NCBI GenBank assembly: GCA_008632985.1
Contig: QPGO01000080.1
Coordinates: 248,001 to 312,000, forward strand
Direction: 5' to 3'
From: Psammoneis japonica
Lineage: Eukaryota
Length of the DNA: 64,000 bases
The translations under genes and the position numbers were made by a program. The notes under the pieces were generated by a model. That model searched no databases, was not told where the DNA came from, and was given only the letters and a program-made list of their open reading frames with translations. This document shows positions 4,786 to 39,361 of this stretch, one piece after another. Position 1 is the first letter of the stretch. Each line of letters begins with the position of its first letter.

Positions 4786-7700
4786 GTCATGACTTGTCCC
4801 TTCTCAACTCATTTCTGCATCAACGATTGGTTTTCAGGATCCATCAATGCACATTGAAATCATGCGTTAATTTGGATTCCCAACCGGAGATCTCACCAGC
4901 ACTGCAATGGCCTGTTGTGGGTGATCAAGAGTGCTGCCGGACACCTCTTGCGCAATCTCAACAGACAGGCCCGTCGAAGGCACAGAAAAAACCAACCTCA
5001 TGTCACAAAATGACTGGCATGCATGCACTTCAGTTCCTTTCATCTTACAGTAGAAGTTGTGTGGCACCAATCTGACAATGTTAAGCAGGCCAACAGCATC
5101 AGAAGTGGGCACAGGACAGACACATCAAAACAATGTGGAGATGATGAAGACAATGTCTGTGGCAGGGCAGGACAACATGTGCTCCCCAGCACCAGTGTGA
5201 AGCACAAAAACAAACATGAAAGGCCCTCAACAGACAACAGATCCATCAAAAATGGGGTGGACAGTGCACAATGTGGAAAACAAACCAGTGCACACAACTT
5301 GCTTGAGGCTGACCACATCATGTCATTGTGGATGATGTTGACTTGCCCAGCCCTTTTTTGCACAACTTTCATCTCATGATTGTTGTCCAACGTCATCCCT
5401 GACATTTTGTGCAAGGAATGTCCGAGGCACACAAGATTGAGCAAGTGGAAGCAGAAAAGGACAGTTGTCTTGGCACACCTGCACAGCACACTTTGTTGGT
5501 CCTGCAAGCTGGAGCAGTCAGTGTGTGTTGCACATGAAATTGGGGTGGATGGGCAATCAGACAGCTGTGCCAATTCTTCCAGCCATGTGTGTGATGCTGG
5601 CCCACTGCCAACCTGCAGCAACAAGGGCTGTTCCAACGCAGCCAAGAAGCACAGCTGGCACCAGTCACATTTCCTTGGGCCATTGCCAACAACAAGATGC
5701 CAGCTTCCCCCAGAGAGCTGTCTCTGGAGCAGTTCTTGCAGCCTGTCTCTAACATCCACAAACCTGGGCCCCAACCCAGAAAATTGTTTGCAAGTCAGCC
5801 TGCCACCATTGTGTCTTTTGAACAGCAATGCTGCAGTGAAATCTGTTGTCAACTTGGATGAATTGTGGCTCTTCTTGGCTCTGAGCAACTCACCTTTGGA
5901 GGCAAGTCAAGCCCAAACCCATGGGACAATGGCTCAGAAATGGTTTGCAACCCAGCCAAAACCTGATGCAAGACCACCTCCCTCCTCCCCATTGTGAAAG
6001 TGTTGGTGCACCATTTGCCCCAGCTCTGGACATCCCAGTTTACATTTCTTCCAATGATGTGGGTGCAGTTGATTTTTTGGGAGAAGCAGCAGTGCTCCTG
6101 GGAATGCACACAATCAGCCAACCAGTGCACCACTTTTGTGAAGACCTCATCTGCAGCAACCTTGCCTGAAGAAGCTCCTTGCTGAAGGCCAACTCAAAAA
6201 GCTGGAGACAGCACTTGGTTGGCTGTTGAACATGCAAAACACAAGTGCCATGCTCCCAAAACACAAACTTGCCACCTGGTCTGAGCAGCTTCAAACACTT
6301 GTCAAGAAAGCAAGGAGGGTGCACCTTCAAGGAAATTGAGCAACTGTTTGGTCACTTTGACCATCCCAAGCACATCATCCAGCATGCTTGATGCTTTCTA
6401 AGTTGCCTGCACTGGCTCAAGCAACATGTCTTCAACAACATTGGCCTTGCCCAGCCAACTCCCACACAGACATTTCCCGTTCTGGGCTGTCACATGCTCA
6501 GCCTGGCAGGGGGTGACTCCCTTTGCCATGTGGGCATCCTCTTGAAAAACTCCCTCATGGGTCAGCCACAGTTGTGTGGCACAAGTTTCATTTGGCATCA
6601 AGGCACCAGCCCATCATCAAAAGAGTGGCAACAAGACTCAACTCTTGCCCTTTTGTGGGGAGTCTGAGATCATCATGTGCCAGTGAAGAATGTGGCACAA
6701 GAAGTGGGGCAAGCAAGAAGGGGCCCATGTCCACCATCATGCACTGGCATTGGAGCTTCAGCATGCTGTGCTTCTGGAGGCATGAAAAGCCAGTTGTCCA
6801 GACCTCACAGCATTGGTCACTGACCAGGAGTGCCTCTCCCTTTTTGCCAGGAGCTGCTCTTGCACAACTCTCACATGCCTGTGCCAACCAAACACAACAT
6901 CCTAAATTTGCAATTTCTGTTTGATCCACTCATCTGGAGAGATCAATGGTGCACTCCGGCATTTGCATGACAACACAACTGGACTTGACATGTGCCAATC
7001 ACAACTGTGGGTGCACCTCCTGGGACGTCTCTGTTCAGCAATCCAAAAGTCTGCACTGAGCATGGTGATGTGACAGCTTTTCTGGCCATTCCTGATCCGG
7101 CAGCAGTTCCTCCACTGTTGTTTGCTCAGAACATGCATTGCAATGCCAAGTTCTGCACTTTTGATCTTGCCATTGATGCAGCTTCAGCATTCAATGGAGC
7201 CCCAAGCATTTTGAATTCAGTGCACCTGAGTGTCAAGATGATTTTGGTGGCAATTTGTCTGCCATCTCCTGTTGTGAACAATCCAGCTCATCCGGATGAT
7301 GGTTTAGAATCTCTTTCACTGGCTCTGACAGCTGCGGCACTTGGAGACCCTCAAGCCGTCCTTGCTGCATGCACTGCACATGACGGCAATGTCTTTCCTT
7401 TTTTGGATGCTCCAACTCACCCGAGTTGTCAAGCTTTGCTTCAAGTCAGTGAGGAGGATTTTCACAAGACCTTCAAGGATTGTTTCTTTGACTGTAAACT
7501 TCATCTCTTATGAGAAAATGTTCGGGTTGACTTTCTTGGTGGTGACAGTGTTGCTGGTGCTCAGGTCATTGACACTGTCTCCAGGTTGAAGCAGACTGTG
7601 ATGGTGAATGGTCAACTGCAACACCACACTGTAGAGGATTTTTGTCTTCCATTTTTAAAGTGGGTTGGCATGTTGCACCAGGACCAAGCCTTCACTGTCA

Positions 7701-10351
7701 ATCTCCCTCAAGTCTTTTATTCAGCCTTGGACCAAAATCTGATCAATCAAGGAGAGGCTGCTTCTCCTCCCTTTGGTGTGCCTGCCAGGCTTCCTGGCAA
7801 GACCAATGCCCAAGCTCTTGATCATCTCCATTGCACCAAAGAAGCTGTCACTGGTTTTGAGTGCCAAATTTTGAAAGGACACCAAGAAGTGAACAGAGCC
7901 AGTGGCATTGCATCAAGAACTGCTGCGCAAGGTTCACAATCTTGTGTGATCCAAACTGATGCCCAAGCCTTTGCAGCTGCACCTGAAGCTCCATGTGAAA
8001 TGCATGCTGATGACTCTGTGGTCCATCAGGTGCCTGGGAATGCATTGAAAGCTCAAGGGTTAAGTGTGGATTCTGATGACACCATGGATGAATTGTGCCA
8101 GTTGTCCACACACATGTCTGTGCTGTTCAGCACCATGGAAGAAGCCGTGCAATGTGCTGCTGGCACAGTGTTCCCTCCAATGGAATGCTGGGGATGCACC
8201 AGTCATAAATTTGTCACAACAAATGGTTTCACCACTGGAGTGAGTGCCCGCATTGTGGCAATCCTGCGGTGCATGCGAATGCAAAGAAGGCACTTGCCAA
8301 TTACATTGAATGCAGGAATCAGGAGAGGCAAGCCCCAGCCAACATTCCTCCTGCCAAGCGTCCCCCTGTGATGAAGCCACGCAGTCACAACATGTCCAAG
8401 GCACGGTTGCAGACAGTTCTGGACCCACTGCAGGTGCTGTTTCAACCACCACAACCATGTTCCAGAAGCTTCGCGATGATGTCAGCCATTCTTGGGAGCT
8501 CCAAGGTCATCTGTCGAAGCAGGTGGCGGATCTTGTCATGTCCTTTGCCAATCCTTCAACATCAGCTACAGCCTGGAAGGCATGCCATGTGTCTCTGTTG
8601 AAGGACAAACATCCTCATGTGACCTCTGTTCAGAGGATCTCACAAAGAGAAACTTCAAGTGGTTTGGGACTCAGCAATGCCAGTTCTCTTTGTTTTCCCC
8701 TCTTGATCAATTTTCAAGTGATGCAGGCTTTAGCTAAAGTGCCAAGGGTCCATTCAGGAGTGAGTCAGATTGTGCCTCACATTTGTTTTTGGGTGGTAAC
8801 CAAGCACAAGGCCGCTCTCAATGCCATGGTCAACACCTGCGCAGGACTGAAACTTGGTCATCTCACGCATCATGAGAGCATCTTTAAAGCTCATGCCGAC
8901 AATGTTGAGACATTTGAGTTCATCAAAGACATTGACAACCTCGATGAGTTCACTTTTTGGTGGTGTGGATGAAGATGGCAATGCAACTCAAGTGGTTGCC
9001 GTTGTTGTCCACAAGACTCCGCTCAAGGTGAATGGTCAAAATGTGTTGGTGTCATTCAGGTTGGCTGAGTTGGCAGCTGCAAATGCGATTTTGGGCTTGC
9101 CATTTCTCAGGGCTGCCAACAGCACTCTTTTTGTGCATTGTGAGTCAGAAGAGACCCTGTTGTGCCAACGGCTTGGTCATGCTTTCCCTGTGCACTGTCA
9201 GGTCCCACATCAAGTGGATCAAGCGCCTCTGACTGGTGGCATGAGGTCTCAAGTGGCATGTGCGTCCTCACCATTGAATGAGACATGGAAACCTGTTTCT
9301 GATGCTGTTGAGCATGCTCAGGCTGAAGTTAAAGTCTTTGTGACTCTTGCAGCTGAGCAACAACTCAAGGTCAACCAGGGGTGCATTGTCTCCATCTGCT
9401 TGTCGGAATTCTTTGCACCAGCTCAATGCGAAGACCCAGGTGTTCCGAATCCTGAACATGATTTTATTCCCAAGGTGCACCAGGATGAATGAGAGTTGCC
9501 ATCAAGCCCAACCTTGGAGTCATCATTCTGCTTGTCAAGTCCCTGTGCAAGTGTGGTTCCAGCTTTTCAAGGTTTGCTTTGGCGTCAAGCTGCACCTTCT
9601 GTGTCCTTGATTGACTCAACAAGAACACATTGCGAGTCTTCCATGTCTTCTGTGTCATCTACATCATCTGCATTTAAACCTCCATTTCCGTCTAAGCCAT
9701 CTCCAAATTTACAAGGTGCTGTTTGCACTTGGAAGAAAATCTGGAGACTGAAGCTGCCGTCGCATTGCATCGAGCCCGACGATTGCCCTGATCTTTTAGA
9801 TGGCATGGAAATCATTTTTAAAGAGCACGGGTCTTCTCTTCGTCAGTCAGTCACAGCTCTGCCGCCCTGTGATGACATTGTCCAATGGAACCCCGAATTG
9901 CATCAAGCTGAGTTTGGCTGGAGTGTCAGGTGGCTCAAGTGCCCCAAGATTTACAAACCCAAAATCACAGAAATCATTCACAAGTGCTGGGATGTCTTTT
10001 GTGAGGATGGGTTGAGAAAACACATCCAAGGCTTTTCATGTCGAGTGGACATGTGAGATGTGGTGCTGGCATGTTGCAAGCTGCCTTGATGTGGTCCACA
10101 TGAATCCAAGATTGTGGTGAAATTGCTCAAACACCTCAAAAACAATGGTTTGATCTGTTGTGATGACAAAAGTCCATTTGGAGCTCTTGTTGTCTCAGTG
10201 GCGAAACCTCATCAAGAGACTGTGCCATGGCACCAACACATTTGGCACCTCTGTGCATCATGTTGATGCTTAAATCAGGTCACCCAGCCCTTCAACTTTC
10301 CAATTCCCTGTTGTGACGATGCTGCACAAGACATTCTGCCTCAGGCCAAAT

Positions 10352-10798
10352 TGAAGTATGCATGCAGACAAAAGGTTATTTTTGTCACGTCCTTTGTGAC
10401 ATTTAAAGGCTGTAACACGTCGCCGTGATTAACTCTTATTAGCAGCTGTGTGTTGCACTCCTCCCCATGTGTCACGCGTCCATGCGGCTCTTTACTAACG
10501 TGCACTGACACTGCACGGTTTTGGCGGAACAGTGTGGGTACGTACGAAGGAACATACAGAACTGCACAGAGTTTTACGCGTTCGACAGTGATCAACGTTG
10601 CTGCAGACAACTCCCACTCGGGTTTCGAACCCCTGGCCTCCTGCCCAGTGGTTACGATGTACCGCACCACTCCGCTGTGAATTCACAACGAAGCATGCAT
10701 GCAGACAAAAGGTCATTTTTGTCACGTCCTTTGTGACATTTAAAGGCTGTAACACGTCGCCGTGACACATTAACTCTTGTTAGCAGCTGTGTGTTGCA
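10352..10798 (-). mobile_element. TRIM (miniature LTR element) with ~106-110-bp LTRs
   Basis: Direct repeats at 10352-10457 and 10689-10798. Outer termini TG...CA, 4-bp TSD AAAT, PPT GGGGAGGAG next to the 3' LTR (10458-10466). Removing it restores the Gypsy RT reading AK-CFLSFNLDCG. Confidence 0.85.
10621..10677 (-). promoter_or_regulatory. tRNA-type Pol III internal promoter (A box and B box) inside the TRIM
   Basis: Minus strand CAGCGGAGTGG (A-box consensus TRGCNNARYGG with one T>C change) and GGTTCGAAACC (B box), separated by 35 nt as in tRNAs. Confidence 0.6.
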
Positions 10799-11810
10799 AA
10801 ATGCTTTCTCAGCTTCAATCTCGATTGTGGACATTGGCAAGTGTTGCAAGAAGAGGCATCATGGGCCAAGATGGCATTCTTCACTCCAGAAGGCAAGAGT
10901 CACAGGAATGTCATGCCAATGGGCTTTGTTGACGCACATGCCATTTTCGTGGTGATGATGGTGGCTCTCCAAAAAGAGTGGAATCACACATTCTTTAGAC
11001 AGCACCCTGATCCAAGTCAAGACAAAGTCGGCACCCGCTTTGTCGTTCAACTGTGTGGATCCAAAGTTGTTGTCGATGGTGTCATGTGCTGTGCCACGTT
11101 GACCAGTCTGTTGTTTCAACACTTCAAGATTGTGCTCCAAATTCTTCAACATCATTGCGTCATGATCAAACTGAAGAAGTGCAAGTGGCTGTCACCTTTG
11201 GTCGAGTTTGTTGGAGCAGACGTCCACTGTGATGGCAATTCTCCGGCACACTCCAAGTTGGATGCTTTTCAAGCTCTTCTGCCACCAGAGATGTGGGGAG
11301 ACCTCTGCATGTTGATTGACCTTTTGGTTTTTGTCAAAGTTGGATGGAATGGTTTGAAGCCAGATTGATCCCATTCAGACGTCTTCAGGTGCAACAACTG
11401 CAGATGGGCGCTGTGGAGCCAGAAGCAGAGCGTGCTTTCTTCGCCGGATTCTGGCTCCCCGAGCATCAAAAGTTGTTTGACCAATTGAAACAAGACATTT
11501 TGTTGGGTTTAGTTTTGGTGCGGCCAGATTGCAGTTGTCAATTCCAGGGTGCGCTGGACCAATCTCACACATTGGGTGCAACATTTGCGGTGAAGGGGGG
11601 GAGGGGGGAATCGCAAAATCACGTGTCACTCTGTAAAACACGTGCTTCATCATGCAAAACACAGATGAGTTTGGCTCATTGCCCTGTGACTTGCGTGGGA
11701 TCCCATGTGGCTGGCATTTGTCAAGCACTTGTTGGTCTGTTGTTGGTCATGTTTGATGGCGGATCAAAACCAGAAGGAACCCGGAAGTGAGCACTCACTG
11801 TCAGTGCGTG

Positions 11811-12088
11811 TGACAGAAATTGAAGGCAAATGGCAAGAATTCAAACAATGACTCCTTGCTGCTGTCTAAATGGCAGATGAGTCTCCACTCAGAGACTGTC
11901 ACAGGAGCCGAAAGACGTGCAAGTTGGTGTGATCAGGCTGCTGTTGTCATTCTTGTGAGCCTTGTGGCTCGAAAGCAAGCTGCATCGCGCATGTGCGCGC
12001 GGAACTAAAGAGCACACAAAACTGTGCGCGGCAAACTAAACAGCGCGCAAAATGTCGCGCACACCCAAATCCTGTTCAAATCCTGTCA
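11811..12088 (-). repeat. 3' LTR of the Copia element
   Basis: TGACAG...CTGTCA termini, adjacent PPT, matches 19005-19280. Confidence 0.95.
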
Positions 12089-15000
12089 CTCCCCAGTTTG
12101 CTTGAGGAGTCACAGAAACAGATTCGACTTCGGATGGAATGAAGTTCCAAAACATGAGGGGACGGAGAAGGTCCCAGACTTGGGAGTGACCCCAATGCTT
12201 GCTGAGAATGTCAGCAGGGTTGCGGGAGCCTTCGATGAAGTGGAGCTCAAGGCAACCAGAGGCAATTGCCTCACGCACACGATGGAATGAGAGAGCGGTG
12301 TGTCGCTTGTGTAACTTGGAGTGCGGGATGGTGGCACTGTCCACAACCGACTTGTTGTCACCGAACATGTGACCAATGTCACGGATTGGGACGCCGAGGT
12401 GACACAGGGCAATGCGCAGGTCGACAATCTGCTTGACACAAGTCCTTGCAGCAACAAATTCAGACCCGCAGGTCACAGTCTCCACGGTGGCTTGCTTCTT
12501 AGAGAACCAATCAGCCGGGAATTTGTTGAGGAAGTGGAGCATTCCCATGACAGAGCGTCCGGTGAGCATGCAATGACACAAGTTTGCATTGACGCAGTGA
12601 GTGGCAGTGACAAACTTGCCAAGGGGCGGTGGAGCGTCCTTCGGGATCATCTCCTCTGCTTCGCCGTACACGGAATGCATCCATTCACAGGCCGGTGCAG
12701 GGAGATCCGAACAGTCGGGCTCTTCCATGCGAACGCGGAGAGAGCCGTGTCGCATCTTGGAGAGGCACCCACAGACACGTTTGGCACGATCCAAGTGGCC
12801 TTGATGGGGCGCAGCTCGGAAGCTAGAGAGTGACATGATGGCCGTGGCAATGTCAATTCGACCAAGAGATGCTGCCCATTGGAGGGAACCAACAAGAGAC
12901 TGGAACTGTTGAATGCCGTTGGGCTCCAGCAGTTCGGAAGCATCCAATTCGGGGTGGTCACCCTTTTCCAGAGGGGACAGGGTGCGTTCGATGTACTTGC
13001 GTGGAGACAGACACAAGGTGCCGTCAGGATCCCGGGAGAAGTGCAACCTGGATGGAACTCAATCGGTCCCGCACCCTTGAGCTTGAACTTGTGCTTTTCC
13101 GTGAGAGTGTCGACAAAAGGTTGAGGATCCTTCATGGCAATGGCGAGGTCATCCACACAAACGGCAACACATTCGTGGTGATCGCCATTCCTGCACATCC
13201 AAATGTCGGGTTCGGCGCGGCAGGGGAAGAAACCTTCAGCTCGCAGGCAGTCGGCGAAGCGCTCGTGCCAGTGGAGGCCGGAGCTGCGCAATCCACACAG
13301 GGCCTTGTAGATGACAAGAATGTGGCCTTCGAGTTTGCCAAATTTGGGTCCAGCTACAATGCACAGCTTCTCCTTGGTGGTGGCTTCAAGGCAGGCATTG
13401 CCAATGTCGGTGGCCCATGTCTCCAACTCGTTGAGTTCAGCCAGGAAAATCATCAGCCGAAGGCCACGAAGGGAGACCACTCCAGAGCAGACACTGTCGA
13501 TGGGTGCGTCCGTGAGGTGTCCATCGGCTGCGAGTCATGCCTTGTGGTGGCCGTTGTGTTTCACGTCATGCACTGGGTGCACTCGGATCTTCTTGTGTCC
13601 CGCAGGAGGAGTGGAAGACTCGGAGGGCCCGCAGTCATGGAAGACTTCGCACTCATCGAGTTGGTCCATCTCGAGATTGGTTGCGTCTCCCCACTTGCGG
13701 TTGCCGTTGCGTTCGTCTGGGGACATGGCGTGTTTGTTTTTCCGGGGAACTTCGCATCCGTGCTTGTGGCGAGGTGCTGTGCGGAAGGAGCAAAGCTTGG
13801 CTTGGTTGGCCATGCGGAATGGCTTCTTCTGGCGCCTCGCGATGGCGCGGAACCGCTTCCAGCCATCAGTGTCGAGAAGTCCGTTCTCTTGTGCACAGAT
13901 GGCGCAGGTGACAGGGTCGTCCTTGGCGATGATGGCAAGAGGCTCGGACGTGATCTCCCCACTTTCCCATTCAAGCATGATGTTGTAGCTTGAGCCTTTC
14001 CAGGCTGGGTCATGAGGCTTCAGAGGTCCTTCGTGTGACACAATGCGTCAGAATTTCCAAACAGTGGTGTCTTCATCTTCTTGCTCGATGTGATTCATGA
14101 TGTCGTTGCAGGCCAGGACTTCCTCGTATTTGTCGTTGTTGACAGAGCAGAGGAACTTGGTGAGCTCGGGGTTGCCGTTCACTTTCCAGTCGTGATCTTT
14201 GACGGCCTTGACGATGCAAGCTCTGTGGCGTTGTCCGTCCTCTTGTGGCTGCATGAGGAAGGTGCATCCGATGATGTCTTGCGGATCGAAAACTGGCATC
14301 TTGGGTGTCCTGATCTCCCCACCAGGTGGATCGACGGGGTTGTCGTCGTGGCGAGATTTGATGATGGGTTCAGGTGGCTCCCCATCAGGAGGATCAAGAC
14401 GCAGGTTTCAAACAGAAGGATCGGTGGTGGCGGATCGGACGTTGGACCGGCAGAGGATCTTCTGAGTGTCGTCAGAAAGAATCTTGAAGGTCATCTGGTG
14501 GCCGACGTGTTCCGCAATGCCAACAAAGCGTCCATGCAACTCACGGGATTCGGACGGCCAATCGGAGTCATCAAGGTGGAAGTGCACGGGTTCCCACCAG
14601 TGAAAGCGAAGCAATTTCCTGCCAGTGAAAGCGAAGCAATGGGCTGATGTCCGGGGTGGAGCCAGCAAGAGTCTCGAGGGGCGTGCGCCAGTGGAGATGT
14701 GGGGACGCTGCATGGTTGAGCATGAAGCAAACACACATGAGCGCCAGCAGCCATGTGTGGGCAGGCAAACCGAAATGGTCCATGACGGTGTTCACCATGT
14801 GCTTCACGGTCTGGCATCGGCGTTTGGCAAAGTTTTGGTGTTGCTGGTGGGGCTCACTTTGCCAGCTGGAGATGAAGAGGGCTCGTAGAATCCCGAGCAC
14901 CTTGTTGCTTGTCTCAACTTGAGCACGGTCGCTGATGAGTTTGGATGGAGCACCATGCTCACAGATCTGATCCTCGAGTGTGTTGACAAACTCTTTGTCG

Positions 15001-15399
15001 GTTTTGGTGCCGCAGACGTCAGTGACGGTAGACTCGGCACCAACAAACAGTTGGGCGATGGCACAACCAGAGTCGATGGCCGGGGTGTCGGCACAAACGG
15101 TGTCAGTGGCGACAGGCTCGTTGCGGCGGTGCACATTAAGGGCGGGGCTGGGCGATTTGCAGGCCTTCTTAAGGTGCGTGCCGGCAGGCATGTGGGCGCA
15201 TTGCGTGGTGCAGTCAAAAGTGCGACGAACCGTGTCGGTGGGTTGGAAACCAAAGCAGGGCCGAAGAGACTCGTGGGAGGGTTCCTTGGGCTGCACATTG
15301 CGCTCCGGAGGTGGAACGTCGTCGTCCTTGGGGTCCATCACGTGTGGATGACACTCGCAGAACACGTCGTCATTCGGAATGAGGTGGTCATCGAGGGCG

Positions 15400-15789
15400 G
15401 ACGCGTTCCAGGTCTAGGTGGGACCTCGCACTGCTGAACTGTGACATCGACAGTTTTTTGAATCGCATCGTATGTCGCGCACGTACATTGCCACGTGATT
15501 TTGGCGAAATTTTGCACAATTTCACAGCACATTCATCAGGCTATCCATTGAACAACTTTTAACATTTTTTTCTTCTATGCCATTCTCGAGTGTCTTAAGA
15601 ATGGCGCAGGGCAGGCGCATTGTCCAAAACTTTGAGTACGAACAGGGACAGATGCACTGCAAACTTGGCCATTTTTTTTTATGTCGAAGACAAATGTGTC
15701 CATCAACCAGAGTACGAACTGCAGAGCTCGCACGTAGAATTCTACGGGGCAAATGTCACAAAAAGTCCCACCTGGGACTGGAACCCGTC
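15400..15789 (-). mobile_element. MITE family A, copy 1 (inside Copia pol)
   Basis: Imperfect 25-bp TIRs GACGCGTTCCAGGTCTAGGTGGGAC / GACGGGTTCCAGTCCCAGGTGGGAC and 4-bp TSD GGCG. Confidence 0.9.
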
Positions 15790-18700
15790 GGCGGACATGT
15801 GATCGGCAGACAAGGAAGTGGACATGATGGCCTTGTTGACAACGACAGGGTGACGGCAGTTGCCGCACTCGTCAAACAGGTTGGCAGTGGGATCGTCCTG
15901 CAGGTCAGAGATCGCGTCGCACCACTGATCGTCGTCAGTGATGGAGTGATCGAGGACGGAAGGGTCCCATGTGTCATCACCAGCAAGGATGACATGTGGC
16001 AGGGCGTCCCATTTGTCGTCAGTGCAGGGCCGCATGGCAACATGAGGCAGGCCACCCTTGATGTCAATTGGGGTGACACAGCCATCAGGAGTGGTGATGC
16101 GCTGCAAGCCGTTGGGCACCTTGACAGAGCGATCGTTGACATCATGTTTGTGCCATTCGAGCTGGCCACAGGAATGAATGGTCTTGCCTTTTCCCATGCA
16201 TGCGTGCTGATGGAGGATGGCAATGGCAGGACCACGCTGTGTCTCAATGACGGCACCAGCGGTGACAATGGGGATGTCCACCAATTGATGGTCGTCAATG
16301 CCCTGGACGTTGACTTGGCGAGAGGTGCGTGCAATGACGCGAACGTCGTCGCCAGCAATGCCACCATTGGCTCCACGATCGACCAGAGCACCAGTGCGTG
16401 TGGAGCGATGAGCGGAGGCAGAGCAAATGACATTGTGGTCATTGACGCGGCGGCAAGTGTGGCCATTGAGTTCTGTGTCATCTGGAGGAGCAGGCGAGGC
16501 AGGGGGAGCGGCGGATGGGCCCGGTCGATTGGCTTTGGGGGCTGGGTTAGGAGACAACAGGCGTTGCAGATCACCGGGTGGCAGTGGCTTGCGCTTGGTG
16601 AGATGCGCCAGAATGGGATTGTCGGAAGTGGCACCCACATTTGGAGCGGGATCACCAGAGTCAGCAGGAGTCGTGTCGGGCAAGTTGACATCACCGTCAC
16701 TCCCAAGTCGTTGGTCATGAAGGTTGACCACAACGGACTCATGCCAGTTGCCGGCTCGTGGATTGCAAGGAGGCGGACAAGAACACTCAAGGATGATGCC
16801 TTGGAGGAATTGGGCAACGAATCCCAAATCCGTTGGTGGTCGGGAGGGAGACGTTTCCATTGGTCGCGGTGAGGCTGGGACCGCGGGTGCAGGCAGCATC
16901 AGCCTGAAGGACGTCAATGTGCTGTGATGTCACAGAACACATCATCAGATGGTTCCTCAGAGTGGACGTCGTGTGCGTGGCACGGCAGGGAGCTCAAGGT
17001 GTCGTCTTGGGTTGAAACGTGCTGTCACATTGAGCCGCCGCGGAGAGGAGCAAGCCACAATGTTGATTGCATGTGAGGCTCTCACCACTCTGCGTGCGAT
17101 GCTGATCAGCTTGATTCTTGATGGCGCGGAGTTCCTCGACTGGATGTGCGGCATTCTCGAGCATGACGCACTTCTGTCCTTCAGAGAAGTGGTCACCAGC
17201 CGGGATGAGTGCCTCGCACTTGTGCAACTGATCCTGCCAATGAAGGATGAACCCGTGGGTCGGACCTTTCCAAGTGCCATCACCAAGGCGTGCGGTGGTG
17301 AGGCACGTGAGCAGGGTGGAGGACTCGACAGATGTGCCAGGTGGAGGCGAGCGCATGCTCGGACAAGGCGCGGCAGATGGTCTGGGCATCAGAAGACCCC
17401 ACATTTTCGCGAATGAGAGCCTTGCCCTTGTCGGTGAGAAGGATGCATTTGAAGACGGCGAACACGCACTTTTGCTGTTCAGCAAAGAGCAGTTTGTCTT
17501 CGGGGCTGGTTGGTTTGTACGATGAGTCTAGAGTGCACTTGACATCTTGGGCACGGGCTTGTGCCACAAGTGAGGTGTGCCAAGTGTGCCACTGCTTGTT
17601 GGATTTGAGAGCCATGAAAGCAGTGGGGTCATGCTTGATGCCTCGCTTGAAGTCTCGCACTGGGTCGCGTGCCTTGGTTGGGTTGGTGACATGCGGAGGT
17701 GCAAGAGGTGAGCTGCCGACGGACACAGAAGACATGTGGTCGGGGCTGAGGCGGCAGGCAAGGAACTCCTCATGCGCAAACAACGAGGAGTCATTGGCAA
17801 CATCAAGGCCTCTGTGGGCTTTGACAATGCACAGACCAACCAGAGCTGCCAACATGTTCTTATAACCTCGGGGCAATGGGATCACATTGGTGCCGTTGTC
17901 GCACTCAAGCGAGTCGATTTGGGAAGGTGTGAACGTGAACAGTTCTTGGCGCGAGTCCGTGCCGTCATGGGTCAAAGCCAAACGAAGAGGGCTTCCAGCA
18001 CCTTGGGCAAGCACGGTTCCAACAATGTGCTTGAAACCATCGGTTTGTTGCTGACGAGTGAGGACCATGGCAGACAAAAGGCGGTGTCAGGGCAAGCGAT
18101 TCTTGTTGGGGCGTGGAGGCAGACTTGAAACTTGAGTGGGAATGGACTTGACTTGAAATGGACTTCACTTGAAATCTTGAACCATCTTAAAATCAGAAGT
18201 CGCCGGGTTGTGCCATCCCGTTTGTTGTCAAGTGCTGAACTTCCCATCCGGTCCGCAGAGTTGTGCCGGCACGTCCAAACCCGCAGCTGGCAGCGCTTTG
18301 GGTTGCTTGTGAGCGGAGTGACGGGTTGCAAACCCCTGCAGGCAAGCTGACTGGAGGTGGGCAAGACCCTCGAACCGTTCTTGTTTCACGTCGGTTGGAT
18401 TTCCCAATCAGGCTGGCCAGTTGGCACAGGCGCAAGGTGCTGTGGACGAACGAACAAATGCGGGAAAACACCCTTGCCCCAACGCAGGCTGCAATCATGG
18501 CCACTTGCTCTCACAGTCACACTCGTGGACCTGGTGGAACTGCAGAGCACCAGCAGTCTGGGGTAGATCAGGTGCAATGGACTCGGTGTGCTTGTAGAGT
18601 GGCAGCAAAGCCGCAGTCCAAAGAGTGGGTTCAAGTTCTTGGCCGTGAAGACACACATGTGTGCATGTCTTCAGCGACAAAGATCTTTGAATGTGCAGGG

Positions 18701-18989
18701 TTCTTGACCGTTAACCGTTGAATGGGCACATCAAGGGATGAGGATCAAGGACAGATTGGACATGACCGTTGAGTGCATGTCTTCAGCGACAAAAGGTGGT
18801 GCAATCAATCCAGATGTCCAGCGGCAAGGAGACTTGACGGTGACGTTAAATTCCTGCCGATGCCTGGTGTTGAATGCGCGCAGACTTGCCGATGTACGTA
18901 GAACACATGTGGAGGTCCATGCAGAATTGAAACAGTGTGGTTGGCAAATCAACGATGATGATGGCAGTTGCTCAATGGGTTGACAATGA

Positions 18990-19004
18990 GCAAGACTGTT
19001 AATC
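18990..19004 (-). promoter_or_regulatory. Putative primer-binding site complementary to the anticodon arm of tRNA-Asn(GUU)
   Basis: GATTAACAGTCTTGC lies directly after the 5' LTR. Its complement GCAAGA-CTGTTAA-TC contains a canonical Asn anticodon loop. Also at 27594-27608 and 58296-58310. Confidence 0.55.
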
Positions 19005-19280
19005 TGACAGAAATTGAAGGCAAATGGCAAGAATTCAAACAACAACTCCTTGCTGCTGTCTAAATGGCAGATGAGTCTCCACTCAGAGACCGTTGCAGGA
19101 GCCGAAAGACGTGCAAGTCGGCACAATCGGGCTGCTGTCATCATTCTTGTGAGCCTTGTGGCTCGAAAGCAAACTACATCGCGCGCGTGCGCACGGAACT
19201 AAAAAGCACAAAACTGTGCGTGGCAAACCAAACAGCACGCAAAATGTCGCGCGCACCCAAATCCTGTTCAAATCCTGTCA
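19005..19280 (-). repeat. 5' LTR of the Copia element
   Basis: TG...CA termini, followed by the putative PBS on the minus strand and flanked by TSD GCGTG. Confidence 0.95.
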
Positions 19281-21899
19281 GCGTGCAATTTGAATGCACA
19301 AACACCAAAAACTGCTCGACTTGGATGTCAAAAGCACCATGACGACCCAAGCTGCTGCTTGTTGCTGGGGTGTTTTACAAAACAGGGTTGTTTTGCACAT
19401 TTTGACAATCTGGGGTGAAAGTGGGGTCAGGGGCGCTGCCCAGTGCATGAGACTGATTCAGTGTGCCCCCATGTCAAGACTGGTTGGAGCAAGGACGCCA
19501 TTGAAGCTGCTTTGCTTCAAGCCAACCCACATGATCTCATTGCTGAAGAAGCCGAGCTTGCCAAAATTCAAGGCGGTCCATGCTTTTTTGACCTGCAACA
19601 TGCTGGCATCTGATTTGGACCCATCGTCTTCTTGTCGTGTGCTGCTTCAGCAGCCAAAAAGTCATGCCACTCCTGCACTGGCAAAGCATCAGTGGGTGGA
19701 TGGGTTTTTCCAAAGTGGCGAAAGTTTTTGTTTGGAAGAGAAATCACTTGACTTGCAGATTGCAATGGCATTTGTGAGTTCTTTGAATGAGACGATGCAC
19801 CAACTCACTGTCTCCAGTGTTGGCGCATGGATTTGCTGTCATTCAGTTGAGCATCGCCCCGACGAATTGATGACCAAGTGCAACATGTTGTCACATTACA
19901 ACACAGCTGTGTCAGCATGGAGAGATGAGTTACAAAAGACGTCAGTTTTGTTGACAATGCCATCAGCTGCAACGCACTCCAAAAATTCACACACCTTGGC
20001 AACTTTGCTGCCTGTGAAGGTGATCAGACCAAGTTCTTTGCTTTTTGCTTCCCCAGCGTCTCGCGAAGTCTCAGGGTCTCGATCCATTGCACATGGCCCC
20101 TGCTCTGCTCCAATTCCAGAAGCTTTTTCTTTGGCATTTCTTGATGCAGTGGATCCCACTGTGATTGATGATCTAGAGGTGTTTTCAAAAGCTCACCCGG
20201 AATTGAGGCTGATGGATGCTGATCAATTTTTTGATTGTGTCCTGCACTTGACAGCTCCTTGGCAAGTGATTGATTGGCTTGTTGTGGTCTTCCCTGTCAA
20301 GTCTGAGGCTCTGACCCTCAAGATGGCTGACACTGATGTGCGCAAATGGCGCAAGACAATGTTGACTCATGCAAAAGCATTGGCATCTCATGCTCACCTC
20401 TCAGCGGCAGCATTCTTTGTCCCTTCATCACTGTTCAGTGCATTCAAACATGTGGCTGGTTTGGTCAAGGACATGCCAGATTTTTTGCTTTGTTCCACTG
20501 CGGCATCAAACACTGCTGACGGTGGGGTGATTGATGGCAGTTGTCAATGCACTGGCGGTTTGCGACCGTGGTCAAAGACAGCCAAGAGCATGGGGACCCA
20601 GAAAGCAAAGCGAGATGTTGCAGGCCAGCCAAAAATCCAAAAAGAAGTCTTTGGACTGCAGCCCTTTTAGTGCACTTTCATGGGGAGAGGCACAAAGCAA
20701 AATCAAGGATGGAACCAGGATGGGATCAACAAGCACAACAACCACATGATGCGGTGGCAGAGGAGAGAACAAAGTGCAGCAGAGTTGATGCACAGCACCT
20801 GCAGATGAAGAAATTGGAGAGTGCACATGGCAAGAAAAGAAAGAAGAAAAAGAAGGATGGCATGAGGGGATGGGCTGCTCCAAAAACTGATTGGAGCAAC
20901 AGGAGCAAGGAGGAGGCCACAGGAAGGAACAACAATTGGGGGAGCACAGAGGAAGTGAAAAGCGTCAAAGTGTTGCACTGTAAAATGCCGGGAACGTCAT
21001 CCATGTGCTTGTCAAATTTAAAGCACAGTTTCAAAGCAATGTGAATCGGGGACTGGTCCAAAGGCAAATCATCACATGGTGAAAAGGAGCCAAGAGTGTT
21101 GCACTTGAAAATGTTGGGAACATTGTCCGCTTGGTTGTTGTGTTTAAATTTTCTTGTGATGCATGACAAAACAATTGCACCAGAAGCAAGATTTCTGACA
21201 TGGCGTGCAAGAATTTTTAAATTAAAAATTTAAAAAATTTTGGCATGGGGGGCAAGAATGTCATGCGCAATGTCAGATCATTGCCCCACCAGATGAACAG
21301 AGGGCTCACAATGACTTGCTGGAGTTGGGCAAGCCAGCAGCTGACACTAAAAAGGTCAAAGCTCTGGCAAAACTCTGGTGGAAAATGCCAAGAACCCCAG
21401 CACCCACACTGGCACAGTTGCCTGCATTGGTCAGCACAAGAACAACCAGTGAAAAAAGCAAGGTGGCAAGAAGAAGGACAAGCCTGGGATTGGGGTTGGA
21501 CATTGTCTTGCTGATGCTGAGTGGAAAGCTTTGAGAGAAGAAGGCCAGGCAGAGGTCAACAAGCTCCATGACACACACAAAGCTGAGTGCAAGTGCAAGG
21601 CCAGCTCCATCTCCTTGGAAGAAGACAAGGAGCAGGGGGTTCATTCTGTCAAGAAAGCTGCCATTTTTGAGCCCAAGGTGGATGAACCCAAAGCAAATGA
21701 TGCACTGAAAGACTCTGATGAGTTGGACAAGAAACCCGCTGCGGATGCAAGCAATCAGTTTGGGCATGGCGCTGACAAGAAACCCTCCAAGGAGGCATGG
21801 ACAGTTGTGCCAGCAGCAAATGGCACGGGACCAAACATCTCTGCACCTGCTGGCACCATGCATTTGTCTGGGCAATTTCTGAAAGATGTTCGTCACTCT

Positions 21900-22780
21900 G
21901 TTGCATTGGCTCACAAGCCCAACTCTGCAGCGACAAATGGCTTGTGGACTTGCACACTGACACTTGCACTGTGGGGTCCAGTCCTGACCACACTGTGGTT
22001 GCACACCCCATGCTCTGATGGGAGTGAACCTGTCAAAGATGTGCCCATTTGCACAGCTGCTGCCGCGTGGGTTGACCCGGAAGATGGCCAACCACACCTG
22101 CTGCTCATCCACTGGGCTGTGTTTTGGGGACCTGATGACCAACACATTGTTGTGCCCCAACCAACTGTGGGCAAATGGGCTGACTGCCCACAACACTCCT
22201 CAACAATTTGATGAGAACCGTGCTCATTCTGTCACCTTTTCTAACTCAAAAATTGGGACACCAGACGCGTTCCAGACGTGGGTGGGGAATCCGTGTGACA
22301 TTGGGCCCGTAGACTTCTACGTGCGAGCTCCGTAGTAAATTTATTCGGTAATTAAAATGTCAATGATCGCCAACAGAAAATGAGGCAATTTTGCGAACGC
22401 ACAAACTCGCACATGATTGAAGTACATCATTTTTTACTCAGCCAGTTACATTCTTCAGACATTGAAGAATGTAACTGGCGCATTATTGTTTCTATAAATT
22501 TGTTATATAAAACGTCTGGGGCTTCGCAAAACAGCGAGTCTGGACAATTTTTTTTTAAATATCACACGTAAAAATCTACGTACGAAACATACGACGGATG
22601 ATAAAAATTATTGTTGTCACACGTCAGCACTACGAGCTCCCACCTAGGGCTGGAACGCGTCACCACTGCACCTGGATGGCGTCACACTGGTCTTTGACTC
22701 ACACAAACTGACTGAGAATGATTTGGAAAATCTCCCATGTCTGGAGCTAAGATCCTCAGCAAAATGGGAGCCTCTTGCTT
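21900..22780 (+). mobile_element. Fragment of a second Copia family (protease region), split by a MITE
   Basis: DLHTDTCTVG (DSHADT-like), KDVPICTAAAAWVDPEDG and LLCPNQLWANG..TPQQFD. After the MITE it continues PLHLDGV..LELRSSAKWEP. Confidence 0.65.
22264..22661 (+). mobile_element. MITE family A, copy 2
   Basis: TIRs GACGCGTTCCAG...CTGGAACGCGTC, 4-bp TSD ACCA, interior still TpA-rich. Confidence 0.9.
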
Positions 22781-23365
22781 GCACTTTGGTGCAAAAGGGA
22801 GGAGTCGCTGTGGGGCAGTGTGCACAAAAGATCCCTGTGTGCTGGTGTGCACTGAAGATCAGCCGATTCTCACAACGAACTGGCAGCGTTGACTGGCACA
22901 AGCGGGCGCATCACTTTGATTCACAGAGATTCTGTCAGACAGCTGAGAGGGACTTTGCATGGGTGGCAACAGGAGTTGATGCACACACCAGGATTTTTGA
23001 AAAGAAAAAAACCCCGCCCACTCAAGCCACTTTTTTTTTTGAGAATTTTCAGTTGTGCGCTTGCTCTCATCCTCCAAACTGTGCCGTGACCAAGCCATCT
23101 TGGACTTGCTCATTGTGAAGCTTTCTCTGCGTGTGACTGCAGCAGCTGTGTTGATGCTGTTGGAACTGCTTGGTTGTTTTCTTGACGTTTGGACTTCGTC
23201 TTGTGCTTGCCCATTGTGGGGTTTTCCCTGTGTGTGATCTGCAGTGGCTGTGTCAATGCTGTTTGGAACTGCCTGGCTGTTTTCTTGACGTGGGCCACCT
23301 GCAACACGGACTGCATGCATCATTTGCACACTTTCATTGAAGGGACATTTTGCACCAGCTCACTT

Positions 23366-23544
23366 TGGGTGTCGCCACTTGCAAGGGGAACAGCTGTGGC
23401 GGTCTGTCTGTACGATGATTTCTACCGGTGCATGCTTTTGGGCTGGAGATGGCAGGGACGGACGACAGGACAAAACATGCGTGGAAACTGTCGTACAGAC
23501 AGACTGCCACTGCGATTCTCCTTGCTTGTAAGTGGCGACACCCA
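23366..23544. mobile_element. Small foldback element/MITE (family B) with ~60-bp arms
   Basis: TGGGTGTCGCCACTT...GTCTGTCTGTACGA pairs with TCGTACAGACAGAC...AAGTGGCGACACCCA. Flanking 4-bp direct repeat ACTT. Confidence 0.75.
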
Positions 23545-23683
23545 ACTTGTTTTAGCCGACGACTGAGCAATGGACAACTGTGCTAACTAAAAAAATAATA
23601 CAAATTGCTGTCTACGCATGTTCATATCAAATCAATCAGAAAATGGGGCGTGCCCATGGATCGACCTTGCGCATGCCATGCAT

Positions 23684-24955
23684 TCAAGGCAATCGGCATT
23701 TCCCCTTCTCGTCCCACCAATGGGTGATGTTGAGCGGATGTTTTTTTAGAGAACGTTCCTCGTCGACGTTGTGTAACTTCTCGCAAAGCTGACATATTCC
23801 ACTCTCCTTACGACCCTGGTTGCTGGGCAAACCAAAGTGCTTTCGCCACCAAAAATAAGACAAGTAGAGAGTTTCGTCCTCTTCAAGCTTTTGAATATAT
23901 TCTGCCAGGTGCCCCGCGTCTTCAAAGTCATTAACGTCAATGAACGAGTGCGGAGGTGCAAAGCGTGTATAGTCGTTCCCCCCCATTACGATTGGAATCA
24001 CGTTTCTGCGGAAAGCCAGAAAAAATTTCTCAGTGACGTAATCCAAACACAAGGAATTCTCAAAAGACAAATAGTACTTGTAGTCTGTCTCGATGGCGAG
24101 AGAACAATTGTCCTTCATGCTTGAATGTTCCTCTCCCGAAGCTCGGTCGCATGATATGGTGCCGCATCTTCCCATGATGTCAACAGAAATGTTTCTCGAT
24201 AACTCTGCCGCGTACTCGTTTCTTCCTGATTGTGCTCTGCAATTAGATACGATCCACGCAATTTTCTTGGGTTTCTTAGCGTAGGCCTTGATCTCATTAG
24301 ACATGAGTGGGAGTCCTTTCTTTTTAAACTCGTCCATGTCAAATGGGAGATGGGAAGATGTGTTGACTGGCTGCTTGTGAGGTGGGAAATGTGCTGGAGG
24401 CCATTGGATATCACTGTCAAAACGATAAGTCCACGTCCAATCAAAGAGATCATCCGCCCCCCACTTCGACATTGAATGATACTGAGGACTTTCCAGTGAA
24501 AAAAAGACATGTTTTGCTCTTCTTGGTTTTGGATTATCATGCAACATCTGTTTGGCACTCTCATTCCGGGCCATGTTCCATGGAGATATAAGCACAGCAT
24601 CAAAATCACGCACGTCTTGCCCTCCATCATTCTCGACCGCAAAACAACGATTGATTTTACAGTGAGCAAATGGCTCTTGTCCCAAACCGAACCAATTTCT
24701 TCTCTTGTATAAACCGTTGTAGTAGAGCACCTTCTTGAAAGCTTGTTCGTCTGTCGGTGGCATTGTGTGGGTTGTCGCAGCAATCTCCTGCACTTGGTGC
24801 GGAGGCGTCGATTCCAACAGTCCGATTCCACGGCGAATGTCAAGCACAAACATCGTCGCACCTGCAATGGACAGAAACAACACCTTTCGGAGAAAGCTCC
24901 CAAGATGAGCGGGAGGTTTTTCGCGAACAAGCTCGGAGTGTGTGGTTGCTGTCAT
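23684..24955 (-). CDS. Alpha-1,3/4-fucosyltransferase (GT10)
   Basis: Signature YKYYLSFENSLCLDYVTEKF, plus SLESP, TYRFDSDI, AWIVSNC and SFIDVNDF. N-terminal TM segment. Confidence 0.92.
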   Translation of the reverse strand: MTATTHSELVREKPPAHLGSFLRKVLFLSIAGATMFVLDIRRGIGLLESTPPHQVQEIAATTHTMPPTDEQAFKKVLYYNGLYKRRNWFGLGQEPFAHCKINRCFAVENDGGQDVRDFDAVLISPWNMARNESAKQMLHDNPKPRRAKHVFFSLESPQYHSMSKWGADDLFDWTWTYRFDSDIQWPPAHFPPHKQPVNTSSHLPFDMDEFKKKGLPLMSNEIKAYAKKPKKIAWIVSNCRAQSGRNEYAAELSRNISVDIMGRCGTISCDRASGEEHSSMKDNCSLAIETDYKYYLSFENSLCLDYVTEKFFLAFRRNVIPIVMGGNDYTRFAPPHSFIDVNDFEDAGHLAEYIQKLEEDETLYLSYFWWRKHFGLPSNQGRKESGICQLCEKLHNVDEERSLKKHPLNITHWWDEKGKCRLP

Positions 24956-27900: not shown

Positions 27901-29424
27901 CCACATGTTCAAGGATCTTCGTCGCTGCAGACATGCACACATGTGCACATGTCTTCACGGCCAAGAACTTGAACCTGCTCTTTGGGCTGCGGCTTTGCTG
28001 CCACTCTGCCAGCACACCGAGTCTGTTGCACCTGATCTGCCCCGGACCACTGGTGCTCTGCAGTTCTGCCAGGTCCACGAGGATGACTGTGAGAGCAAGT
28101 GGCCGTGATTGCAGCCTGCGCTGGGGCGAGGGTGTTTTCCCGCGTTTGTTCGTTCGTCCACAGCACCTGACGCCTGCGTCAACTGGCCAGCCTGATCGGG
28201 AAATCCAACCGACATAAAATGAGAACGGTTCGGGGGTCTTGTCCACCTCCAGTCAGCTTGCCTGCAGGGGTTTACAACCCGCTGCTCCGCTCGCAAGCAA
28301 CCCAAAGCGCCGCTGGCTGCGGGTTCGGACGTGCCGTCTACGGACTGGATGGGAAGTTTGGCACTTGACAAAGAACGGGACATCACAGCCCGGCGACTTC
28401 TGATTTTAAGACAGCCCAAGATTTCAAGTCAAGTCTGGCTCAAGTCAAGTCTTTTTCAAGCCAAGTCACAAGTCAAAACTCCGAGTCAAGACCGCGCTCT
28501 AGATTGGCTCCTGTCTTTTGTTTCCACTGCACCATCCTCCGTCATGGTTCTCACGCAACAGCAACAAACCAAAAGCTTTGAATGCCTTCTAGGCACTGTG
28601 CTCAATCAAGACGATGACAGCCCTCTTCGTTCTGCCCTGTCCATCAACGGGGTTGAATCGTGTGAGGAATTGTTCATGTTCTCACCCACCCAAATCGACG
28701 CCCTCACTCACAGAGACGGTGCCAATGTGGTTCCTTTGCCACGGACCTACAGAAACCTCCTGGCAGCTTTGATCAGCTTCTACTTTGTCAAAGTTTGCAA
28801 CAGTGATGATGTGACCAATGAACCCCAGTTGCTCACACCCAAGGAATTTCGCGACCACCGCCTTGGCCCGGACTGCTTGACCTCTCTAGCCACTGGCACA
28901 GCACCCTCCGCACCTGTGCCGAGTCCCTTGCCATCCAAACCAGGTGAACCCAGCGCCATTTTGACACCAGCCTTGCACTGTGCCGCCACTCAGGTGTCCC
29001 CAAGAAGTGGTGTCAGTCACGCCCCGCATGTCTTGACCAACCCGCCTGCAAGCAAACTCGGCCCAGTGCAGGATTGCAGCCCTTGCGCAGGCCCGCACTT
29101 CGAAACCAGTTGGGACACTCCACCCATGGCTTCCAAAGCTGCAGCCTTTGCACCCCGCAAACCACGTGCTGCCAACCTCCACATGTCGACCACTGTCACC
29201 CTTCATGACCTTCGTTTGGGAAGTGATGGAGATGACAACTTGCTTCTCGCATCTCCTGATGGGGAGCCTCCTTTTCCCATCATTGAACTGTTGGCTTCCA
29301 AAGCTGCAGCCTTTGCACCCCGCAAACCACGTGCTGCCAGCCTCCACGTGTCGACCGCTGTCACCCTTCACGACCTTTGTTTGGGAAGTGATGGAGATGA
29401 CAACTTGCTTCTCGTATCTCCTGA

Positions 29425-39078: not shown

Positions 39079-39361
39079 ATGAGAGCGCAGCCGGGCGGTC
39101 CATGGAGATTTACTGTGTTCGGTGCAACGGGTCTGAGTTTTCACGTTGGGGCGCGCGCATCAGAAAAGTACCGTCCGCGGTGGTACACCCTGGCCACTTT
39201 TTTGCACAGTCTTCGTCTACCATATATAATATCAATTCGACGTCTTCATCGACTCTCATTGTTTCTGTTGCCGACCTGCTTTTGGCACAGTAGAGTTCGA
39301 CGGCTTGAGTGCACTCCCAACTGGGAGGTTTGTCGAGTGTCGCCGAAAGCCAGAAGCTGCT

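Follow-up and report, generated by a model that had tools for sequence, protein, structure and literature searches.

A TpA-to-TpG/CpA hypermutation footprint in transposons on a contig of Psammoneis japonica

Hypermutation of foreign DNA at TpA has recently been measured in the chlorarachniophyte Bigelowiella natans, and we suggest that a comparable process has acted on the transposons in a 64,000-nucleotide stretch of the Psammoneis japonica genome (GCA_008632985.1, contig QPGO01000080.1, forward-strand positions 248,001 to 312,000). We call this whole stretch the window; the focus is a degenerate Ty1/Copia-type long terminal repeat (LTR) retrotransposon at window positions 11811-19280, element A. 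In mutation-accumulation lines of B. natans, two integrated viral regions took 231 of the 302 point mutations in the nuclear genome (Mettrop et al., bioRxiv 10.64898/2026.01.13.699255). The de novo changes were A>G or T>C in 210 of 211 cases in one region and in 20 of 20 in the other, and every GC-directed mutation was at TpA. The preprint also reports a rate raised about 1000-fold, in only some of the lines, an enrichment of reverse transcriptase (RT) and DDE domains among TpA-poor coding sequences, and an ADAT2-like protein proposed as the candidate enzyme. The first-pass annotation of element A, made from the letters of the DNA, knew of no described system with this signature; that statement is now outdated, since the preprint measured exactly this signature.

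Both cases show A:T>G:C change at TpA only, yielding TpG or CpA according to strand, on a chromosomal substrate and local to foreign or selfish DNA, with long-term TpA depletion and CpA and TpG enrichment. All of the sequence-level features of B. natans are found here, with locality judged on one 64 kb window. The hosts differ, B. natans belonging to the Rhizaria and the host genes here resembling diatom genes. So do the targets: integrated DNA of nucleocytoplasmic large DNA viruses (NCLDV) and virophages, one of them single-copy, in B. natans, and LTR retrotransposons with nested miniature inverted-repeat transposable elements (MITEs) here. The degree also differs (Rho TpA of 0.45 in the B. 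natans NCLDV region, an observed/expected ratio, o/e, of about 0.1 here), as does the coupling with CpG decay that is seen at this locus. The rate was measured experimentally in B. natans, and is here estimated from copies as about 50-100-fold over bases outside pyrimidine-purine (YR) steps.

Repeat-induced point mutation (RIP) of ascomycete fungi requires duplicated sequence and a sexual cycle. Like our case, it is a hypermutation by transitions at the level of DNA, hits both strands of transposons in a dinucleotide context and ruins their coding capacity, and the same dinucleotide indices detect it. RIP changes C to T, mainly CpA to TpA, and thereby creates TpA and lowers GC (PMC2621366), whereas here TpA is destroyed and GC is raised (0.511 in repeats versus 0.466 in genic DNA); the first-pass annotation was right to describe the direction as the reverse of RIP. 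A-to-I mRNA editing by ADAT (Tad2/Tad3) in filamentous fungi has a strong preference for U at -1 (PMC11156358), and this editing and the ADAR hyper-editing of animal repeat RNA have a 5' U (T) preference like that seen here. Such editing acts on RNA, on one strand, and leaves the genome unchanged unless reverse-transcribed, whereas the changes here are genomic, on both strands and post-integration. Finally, LTR retrotransposons of the diatom Phaeodactylum tricornutum are CpG-methylated (PMC2806351). Methylation-driven CpG decay shares with this locus sites that vary among copies between CG and TG or CA and at which CG survives as the parent state, but such decay is unable to remove TA or to make Tyr>Cys/His changes. 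It is also slower here: about 25% of CpG sites have decayed per LTR, versus about 70% of inferred TA sites.

Composition and codon evidence in the transposon blocks

The depleted parts of the window are as follows (none is assigned a strand).

1-1600: TA-depleted repeat block, with CpG near zero too (1-1000: TA o/e 0.03, CG 0.02, TG 1.94, CA 2.01)
4870-23350: TA-depleted transposon block with element A (1 kb and 200 bp scans)
25346-39000: TA-depleted transposon block with element B, a relative of element A, and a second repeat family (composition scan, self-comparison)
52000-59050: TA-depleted transposon block with element C, a further relative (1 kb and 200 bp scans)
62750-64000: TA-depleted block at the window end (1 kb scan)

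Pooled over the repeat blocks, 286 TA dinucleotides occur in 41,589 bases (o/e 0.11), as against 821 in 19,967 bases of genic DNA (o/e 0.58). TpA is thus nine-fold depleted in the repeats, while TpG and CpA are enriched (o/e 1.59 and 1.61, versus 1.20 and 1.17 in genic DNA). Most 1 kb windows in the blocks have a TA o/e of 0.00-0.19, with TG and CA mostly at 1.4-2.1; the genic stretches (about 1.6-4.9, 39-52 and 59-62.7 kb) have TA at 0.45-0.78 and CG at about 0.7-1.3 in the same 1 kb scan. TA o/e is below 0.2 in 36 of 63 one-kb windows and reaches 0.0-0.05 in the most extreme, and the boundaries of depletion are abrupt at 200 bp resolution. Within 11811-19280 there are 44 TA where 376.6 are expected from base composition (o/e 0.117), and the lowest count in 500 mononucleotide shuffles was 335; with a nested MITE removed the figures are 32 versus 349.2 (o/e 0.092). 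The scarcity of TA in the repeat blocks that the first-pass annotation reported is therefore real, although its estimate of about 20 TA in the Copia interior was too low: the interior of element A (12089-19004) holds 38, of which 12 lie inside the MITE.

The summed o/e of the four pyrimidine-purine steps is 3.84 in depleted windows and 3.87 in normal ones, and thus TA, and partly CG, has been swapped for TG and CA. Across windows, TA o/e falls as TG+CA o/e rises (correlation -0.82) and moves together with CG o/e (Spearman +0.67). AA, AT and TT o/e are equal in repeats and genes, and TC o/e is 1.05 in repeats versus 1.10 in genic DNA.

The direction of change was read from the conserved codons of two unrelated retroelements in the 4870-23350 block.

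11811-19280, minus strand: element A, degenerate Ty1/Copia-type LTR retrotransposon (LTR pair, target site duplication (TSD), RVT_2 match, homologues)
11806-11810 and 19281-19285, flanking: TSD of element A, GCGTG, perfect 5 bp
11811-12088, minus strand: LTR of element A at the window-left end, 91% identical to 19005-19280 (self-BLAST)
19005-19280, minus strand: LTR of element A at the window-right end (self-BLAST, LTR alignment)
13148-13159, minus strand: RT catalytic motif CVDD, which is YVDD in 41 of 43 homologues (TAY>TGY)
9532-11679, plus strand: RVT_1-type retroelement remnant, unrelated to element A and TA-depleted (Pfam RVT_1, E 1.1e-5, below the curated cut-off; homologues)

All the Ty1/Copia features looked for are found in element A: LTRs (276-278 bp), a 5 bp TSD and a gag-pol frame with an RVT_2 match (Pfam, E 5.5e-13). 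It is threaded in tblastn by 43 full-length homologous polyproteins of 1,800-2,000 amino acids over 1,879 codons with frameshifts. Its plus strand contains 15 TAA, 13 TAG and 173 TGA, and long open reading frames (ORFs) run in all six frames because TAA and TAG are nearly absent; these six-frame ORFs are not genes.

We scored strict codon sites, defined by at least 80% agreement among at least 20 homologues, which gave 658 sites. The 33 strict Tyr sites of element A now read as 18 Cys (TGC/TGT), 8 His (CAC/CAT), 3 Tyr, 2 Phe, 1 Trp and 1 Asn, and a looser set of 52 reads as 29 Cys, 13 His, 4 Tyr, 4 Phe, 1 Trp and 1 Asn, while the other residue classes among the conserved sites were retained at 75-100%. 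TGY or CAY accounts for 26 of the 30 changed conserved Tyr codons, and about 90% of the changes are transitions. Less often, Leu has become Pro (CCA, at 3 sites) or Val has become Ala (GCA, at 2 sites), which is consistent with TA>CA at codon positions 2-3. Along the homology path element A has 0.37% Tyr, versus a median of 4.0% in the 120 homologues listed, none of which falls below 2.2%, and 3.89% Cys versus a homologue median of 1.05%. In the RVT_1 remnant none of the 6 conserved Tyr is kept (3 Cys, 2 His, 1 Gln).

The first-pass annotation had rested its polarity on eight Copia motifs in which Tyr should stand. All eight are present, and the homologues encode Tyr at these motifs, with nine of the ten claimed positions being consensus Tyr among 42-43 homologues; the claim fails for the Cys of KHGCEVP, a Phe-majority column (29 of 43). 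The proposed direction, TA to TG or CA, is upheld by Tyr codons in both unrelated families and by the MITE pairs described below, and the presence of both Cys (TG) and His (CA) products, at 18 versus 8 in the strict set and 29 versus 13 in the looser one, upholds its view that both strands are affected. Two proteins among the closest Copia RT homologues listed, P0005 and P0006, have 2.2-2.3% Tyr and 2.2-2.5% Cys; they could be copies, from other samples, that were mildly hypermutated.

The loss is specific to its context. At strict sites 28 of 29 Lys, 18 of 19 Asn, 21 of 23 Ile and 27 of 29 Phe are kept (91-97%), and A/G differences among copies are about equally frequent after a 5' A (2.2-3.7%) and a 5' G (1.4-2.6%). 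With the o/e of AA, AT and TT unchanged as well, the predicted enrichment of A>G in TpA context holds. GC-biased gene conversion, or general AT>GC pressure, was considered and rejected, since the loss of A and T is confined to TpA. Among 51 polarisable events the +1 base was C on the mutated strand in 22 and on the spared strand in 10, and the TAs that survive are over-represented in TTAA and CTAA/TTAG and scarce in ATAN/NTAT, a pattern that comes partly from young inserts. This suggests that TAY is favoured and TTAA refractory, as a lead from a small sample.

The excess of Cys over His at Tyr sites (29 versus 13, p = 0.02) is on the sense strand, and the raw sense-strand counts of the element A interior (601 TG, 686 CA) show no sense bias. 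We therefore rejected a transcription-strand bias as a firm conclusion, as the Cys excess is unmirrored in those counts; it may instead reflect the TAY context. Same-strand tracts of the kind expected from a processive single-strand deaminase were not seen in runs tests on 6 alignments (P 0.10-1.0). Neighbouring discordant sites were in the same state 48 times and in different states 47 times, from which it appears that events accumulate singly, without long same-strand tracts.

A second process runs alongside. CpG is likewise depleted (o/e 0.53 overall, 0.02-0.3 in some blocks and as low as 0.02-0.05), and this parallel decay was overlooked in the first-pass annotation, whose dinucleotide account otherwise stands for TA. 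Arg has become His or Cys at 13 of 59 conserved sites in element A and is kept at only 3 of 9 in the older RVT_1 remnant. Windows with TA o/e below 0.2 range over CG o/e from 0.02 to 0.89, and so TA loss saturates first. These data show a slower CpG>TpG/CpA decay, of the cytosine-methylation kind, alongside the loss of TpA.

Three stretches (1-1000, 5000-7000 and 52000-54000) have CpG and TpA o/e of 0.00-0.13 and TG and CA up to about 1.7-2.1, so that their pyrimidine-purine steps are almost all TG or CA; presumably they are the oldest or most heavily methylated elements. The ORF tested from one of them, within 5040-5906, had no Pfam match. The zone at 23200-25340, between two strongly depleted blocks, is intermediate (TA o/e 0.38, CG 0.87, TG and CA 1.3-1.4). 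It may represent an element that is younger or mutated in part, or else unique DNA into which the process has spilled over mildly.

Timing, substrate and rate from LTR pairs, MITE copies and reads

Both LTRs of one element are identical when it integrates, and their differences date from afterwards. Two non-autonomous relatives carry the LTRs of element A:

27317-31579, plus strand: element B, with TSD GGGCA, perfect 5 bp
54290-58585, minus strand: element C, with TSD GCCTG, perfect 5 bp

The LTR pair of element A has 25 differences in 276 aligned positions, of which 24 are transitions and 21 lie in YR sites; the three pairs together (A, B and C; 828 aligned positions) have 68 differences, 63 of them transitions and 53 in YR sites. 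There are 37 sites with CG in both LTRs and 25 with CG opposite TG or CA, which corresponds to about 25% CpG decay per LTR. At 12 sites TG in one LTR stands opposite CA in the other, versus about 2.1 expected from CpG decay (Poisson P = 2e-6). Eight pair alignments, which share elements, partly overlap and are not independent, give 122 discordant sites versus about 17 expected. In an alignment of all six LTRs, 15 of 25 variable YR sites include CG (surviving in 3-5 of 6 copies), and 8 are resolved to TG or CA in every copy. The simplest reading is that the discordant LTR sites were TA at integration and would have been resolved independently in each LTR, on either strand. A hand estimate from the LTR counts gives about 32 ancestral TA sites, about 70% of them converted per copy, and a TA loss at about 50-100 times the rate of non-YR base change and about 4 times that of CpG.

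The MITE that interrupts element A has terminal inverted repeats (TIRs) and a length of about 394 bp; four copies were aligned.

29874-30249, no strand: TA-rich copy in element B beside an N gap, 28 TA, o/e 0.89
22269-22661, no strand: TA-rich copy within a TA-depleted block, 27 TA, o/e 0.79
about 15400-15798 (ends approximate), no strand: copy inside element A, 12 TA, o/e 0.42, partly TA-depleted
57387-57790, no strand: copy inside element C, the most TA-depleted, 6 TA, o/e 0.21

The four copies thus form a graded series (28, 27, 12, 6), and within the two subfamily pairs a TA in the richer copy lies opposite TG or CA in the poorer at 34 sites, with the reverse at 3. The LTR discordance and the effect on the MITE together place the process, as we read them, on chromosomal duplex DNA after insertion. 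The first-pass claim that it acts on double-stranded DNA is thus sustained, with the discordant LTRs lying between intact TSDs and the MITE being of TIR type. Since insertion, about 90% of the TA in the transposable elements here has been turned into TG or CA. The two TA-rich copies could reflect either a slow or episodic process or young insertions. Because two of four copies are TA-rich, the process would be slow, episodic or not purely regional, and because two repeated copies retain a TA o/e of 0.79-0.89, repetition alone would be insufficient for targeting.

Sequencing reads were examined as contigs of four runs, all of one sample in a single study that may have supplied the assembly itself. 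No RNA data set was listed for the element. Both unique flanks of element A are matched by contigs with 0 differences, and the contigs reach 27 bases into the LTR. Of the exact 31-letter words sampled from this copy, 44% are present in the contigs of run X1. In the same run other family copies differ from element A at 376 listed differences, of which 319 are transitions, and in all four runs contigs of other copies skip the MITE (15404>15799). The best-supported 40 of 402 difference rows were examined, with two adjacent TG/CA doubles set aside; in these 40, the window has CA or TG where others have CG in 10 rows, TG or CA where others have TA in 4, and CG where other copies have decayed in 5. 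TA-bearing paralogues therefore exist, which fits a progressive process and not an artefact. The summed word depth over element A is about 2x10^4 to 2x10^5, compared with about 60-170 over the flanks in this one sample, and the element A family is very abundant in the sequenced sample. TA-depleted flanks at 11000-11600 and 19428-20000 have only flank-level depth (about 60-170), and TA depletion is therefore not limited to DNA that is high-copy at 90% likeness or more.

Candidate mechanisms

The comparisons above show a process that, to judge from aligned copies, is TpA-specific, acts on both strands, post-integration and independently at each site, is confined to transposon sequence and is faster than CpG decay. 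With moderate confidence we explain it as post-integration TpA>TpG/CpA hypermutation of transposon DNA, probably by adenine deamination, through a B. natans-like system in a diatom-like host. An ADAT/TadA-like or other deaminase, putatively recruited to silenced, methylated transposon chromatin, would turn adenine into hypoxanthine in DNA; the A of 5'-TA-3' on either strand would be replaced by G, and TA would become TG or CA. Together with CpG decay this would convert nearly all pyrimidine-purine steps of old elements to TG or CA and would destroy coding capacity, down to the Tyr in the YVDD motif of the RT. Adenine deamination is favoured by the predominance of transitions (about 90%), the sparing of AA and the ADAT-type preference for a 5' U or T.

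Several points weigh against this explanation. A>G on one strand is indistinguishable from T>C on the other, and the sequence by itself admits a thymine-directed process. Transversions make up about 10% of changed Tyr sites (3 of 30). Two of the four MITE copies retain most of their TA within depleted blocks. Reading the 12 discordant LTR sites as former TA assumes similar CpG decay rates, and the wider count of discordances comes from the overlapping alignments noted above. The run contigs over element A are dominated by paralogues, and none of those listed spans this copy. The first-pass annotation had the process restricted to repeats, and confinement to transposon sequence is indeed what we see; on repetition as the trigger the observations are mixed. 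All depleted blocks are transposons, but half of the MITE copies are TA-rich, the flank at 11000-11600 is at flank-level depth, and a B. natans target is single-copy.

Dinoflagellates carry 5-hydroxymethyluracil in place of thymine, preferentially at TpA and TpC. The T of TpA might accordingly be the modified base in silenced DNA (for instance 5-hydroxymethyluracil made by a TET/JBP-type enzyme), and its mispairing or misrepair would give T>C. Since TA is self-complementary, all of the results here fit this equally well, but TC is not depleted (o/e 1.05 versus 1.10), no sign of such a base in diatoms came to light, though no search was aimed at it, and the B. natans authors prefer deamination, as an untested proposal; we regard a thymine-directed process as unlikely, though the strongest of the alternatives. 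Somewhat less probable is error-prone patch repair, in which T:G mismatches from 5-methylcytosine deamination would enter a non-canonical mismatch repair with Pol eta-like errors at WA. In phase 2 of immunoglobulin somatic hypermutation Pol eta leaves a WA hotspot with strand bias. Such repair would account for the joint loss of TpA and CpG in the same blocks (Spearman +0.67) and for the sense-strand excess at Tyr sites, and Pol eta does work in non-canonical mismatch repair downstream of AID. It would not account for the sparing of AA, with Lys and Asn kept at 28 of 29 and 18 of 19 sites and A/G divergence after 5' A about equal to that after 5' G. Nor does it predict some 90% transitions at Tyr sites, a raw interior count without sense bias, or, in B. 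natans, 210 transitions among 211 mutations in the NCLDV region.

The remaining explanations seem to us far less probable than these. Footprints of APOBEC3 or ADAR are known in animal retroelements, and the RNA or cDNA of a retroelement might be edited by an ADAR- or ADAT-like enzyme, with reverse transcription and integration then fixing the edits. RNA adenosine deaminases typically prefer UA (PMC11156358; bioRxiv 10.64898/2026.01.13.699255), and a modest sense-strand excess would also be in keeping. However, the two LTRs should then carry identical edits, whereas 12 TG-versus-CA discordances occur in three elements with intact TSDs; both strands are affected, not one, and a TIR-type MITE, which has no RNA intermediate, was mutated in place. 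The LTR discordance rules out RNA or cDNA editing as the sole cause, and we hold pre-integration editing to be very improbable. An assembly or base-calling artefact, with true TA at a modified transposon base that is systematically misread, is a shade less credible again. The runs do all belong to one study of one sample and are possibly the data behind the assembly, but with a converted site every 15-20 bases or so, the presence of 44% of the 31-letter words is incompatible with TA-carrying reads, and contigs equal the flanks without a difference. A given site can be TG in one copy, CA in a second and still TA in paralogues, unlike a systematic miscall, and frameshifts and CpG decay mark the copies as truly degenerate. 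We give least credence of all to inherited composition, in which the families would have been TA-poor before their spread, for instance because UpA was selected against in RNA. TA is mildly scarce in genic DNA too (o/e 0.58), but the homologues have normal Tyr (median 4.0% among the 120 listed, versus 0.37% here), a CVDD catalytic site is not selectable, the LTR pairs diverged at these sites post-insertion, and the MITE copies form a graded series.

Neighbouring features and meaning of the footprint

The second repeat family in the 25346-39000 block is present as three pairs, found by pairwise alignment (no strand assigned):

26114-27315 and 37166-38324
25346-26113 and 32837-33605
32143-32839 and 38406-39086

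Element B has an internal 42 bp tandem array (30250-30985, 17.5 copies) and an N gap at 29425-29873; element C has a similar array (55246-56123, about 21 copies), with 84-88% matches in the two, and element A is without one. The 449-N gap is immediately preceded by 1.8 copies, 95% identical, of a 165 bp unit (29127-29424), possibly a fault of assembly at the edge of the gap and not a biological feature. A scan of the 64 kb window against Rfam at gathering thresholds gave 0 matches.

The genic ORFs are long and intron-poor. Two adjacent leucine-rich repeat (LRR) ORFs on the minus strand (47764-48777 and 48800-51745; 337 and 981 amino acids, stop to stop) both end in a Cys-rich cap (TDCGG...CxCCTDC) and look like a tandem pair of receptor-like genes. 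The nearest Atlas clusters to the LRR gene are mostly Bacillariophyta (scores 0.98, 0.96 and 0.93), and a second host ORF has named relatives in Cyclophora tenuis, Conticribra weissflogii and MMETSP diatom transcriptomes, at about 36-51% identity. The minus-strand ORF at 42493-43608 (371 amino acids) has an N-terminal RING finger-like Cys-rich stretch, a coiled-coil-like region and low-complexity tails, and matched no Pfam family at E 0.001; we take its layout to resemble that of HEI10/Zip3-type ligases.

A full-text literature search that took in two papers on diatom transposons, with subscription journals outside its scope, found the signature unreported in diatoms. The footprint is that of a second lineage for the recently described TpA hypermutation, with transposons as targets and near-saturation, and the signature is thus not peculiar to one species or to viral inserts. 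We know of no enzyme identified so far that naturally serves defence by deaminating adenine in chromosomal DNA, and of one experimental report of this signature, the 2026 preprint on B. natans, a little-studied alga. We suggest, tentatively and with more doubt than we attach to the hypermutation itself, that diatoms and chlorarachniophytes, distant branches of the SAR group, share a dedicated adenine-editing defence, coupled to heterochromatin and cytosine methylation, that acts at 5'-TA in the silenced DNA of transposons and viruses and employs a natural DNA adenine deaminase. If true, this would be a functional mirror of fungal RIP, and in diatoms, where it would be near-saturating, maybe a main route of permanent transposon inactivation.

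A second lineage enables a comparative search for deaminase or base-modifying genes that are present with the footprint and absent without it, and diatoms include transformable, CRISPR-tractable model species. There are also consequences for annotation and dating. The loss of TAA and TAG leaves long spurious ORFs in dead elements, by which gene counts are possibly inflated, and LTR insertion dates taken from raw divergence will be too old unless YR sites are masked.

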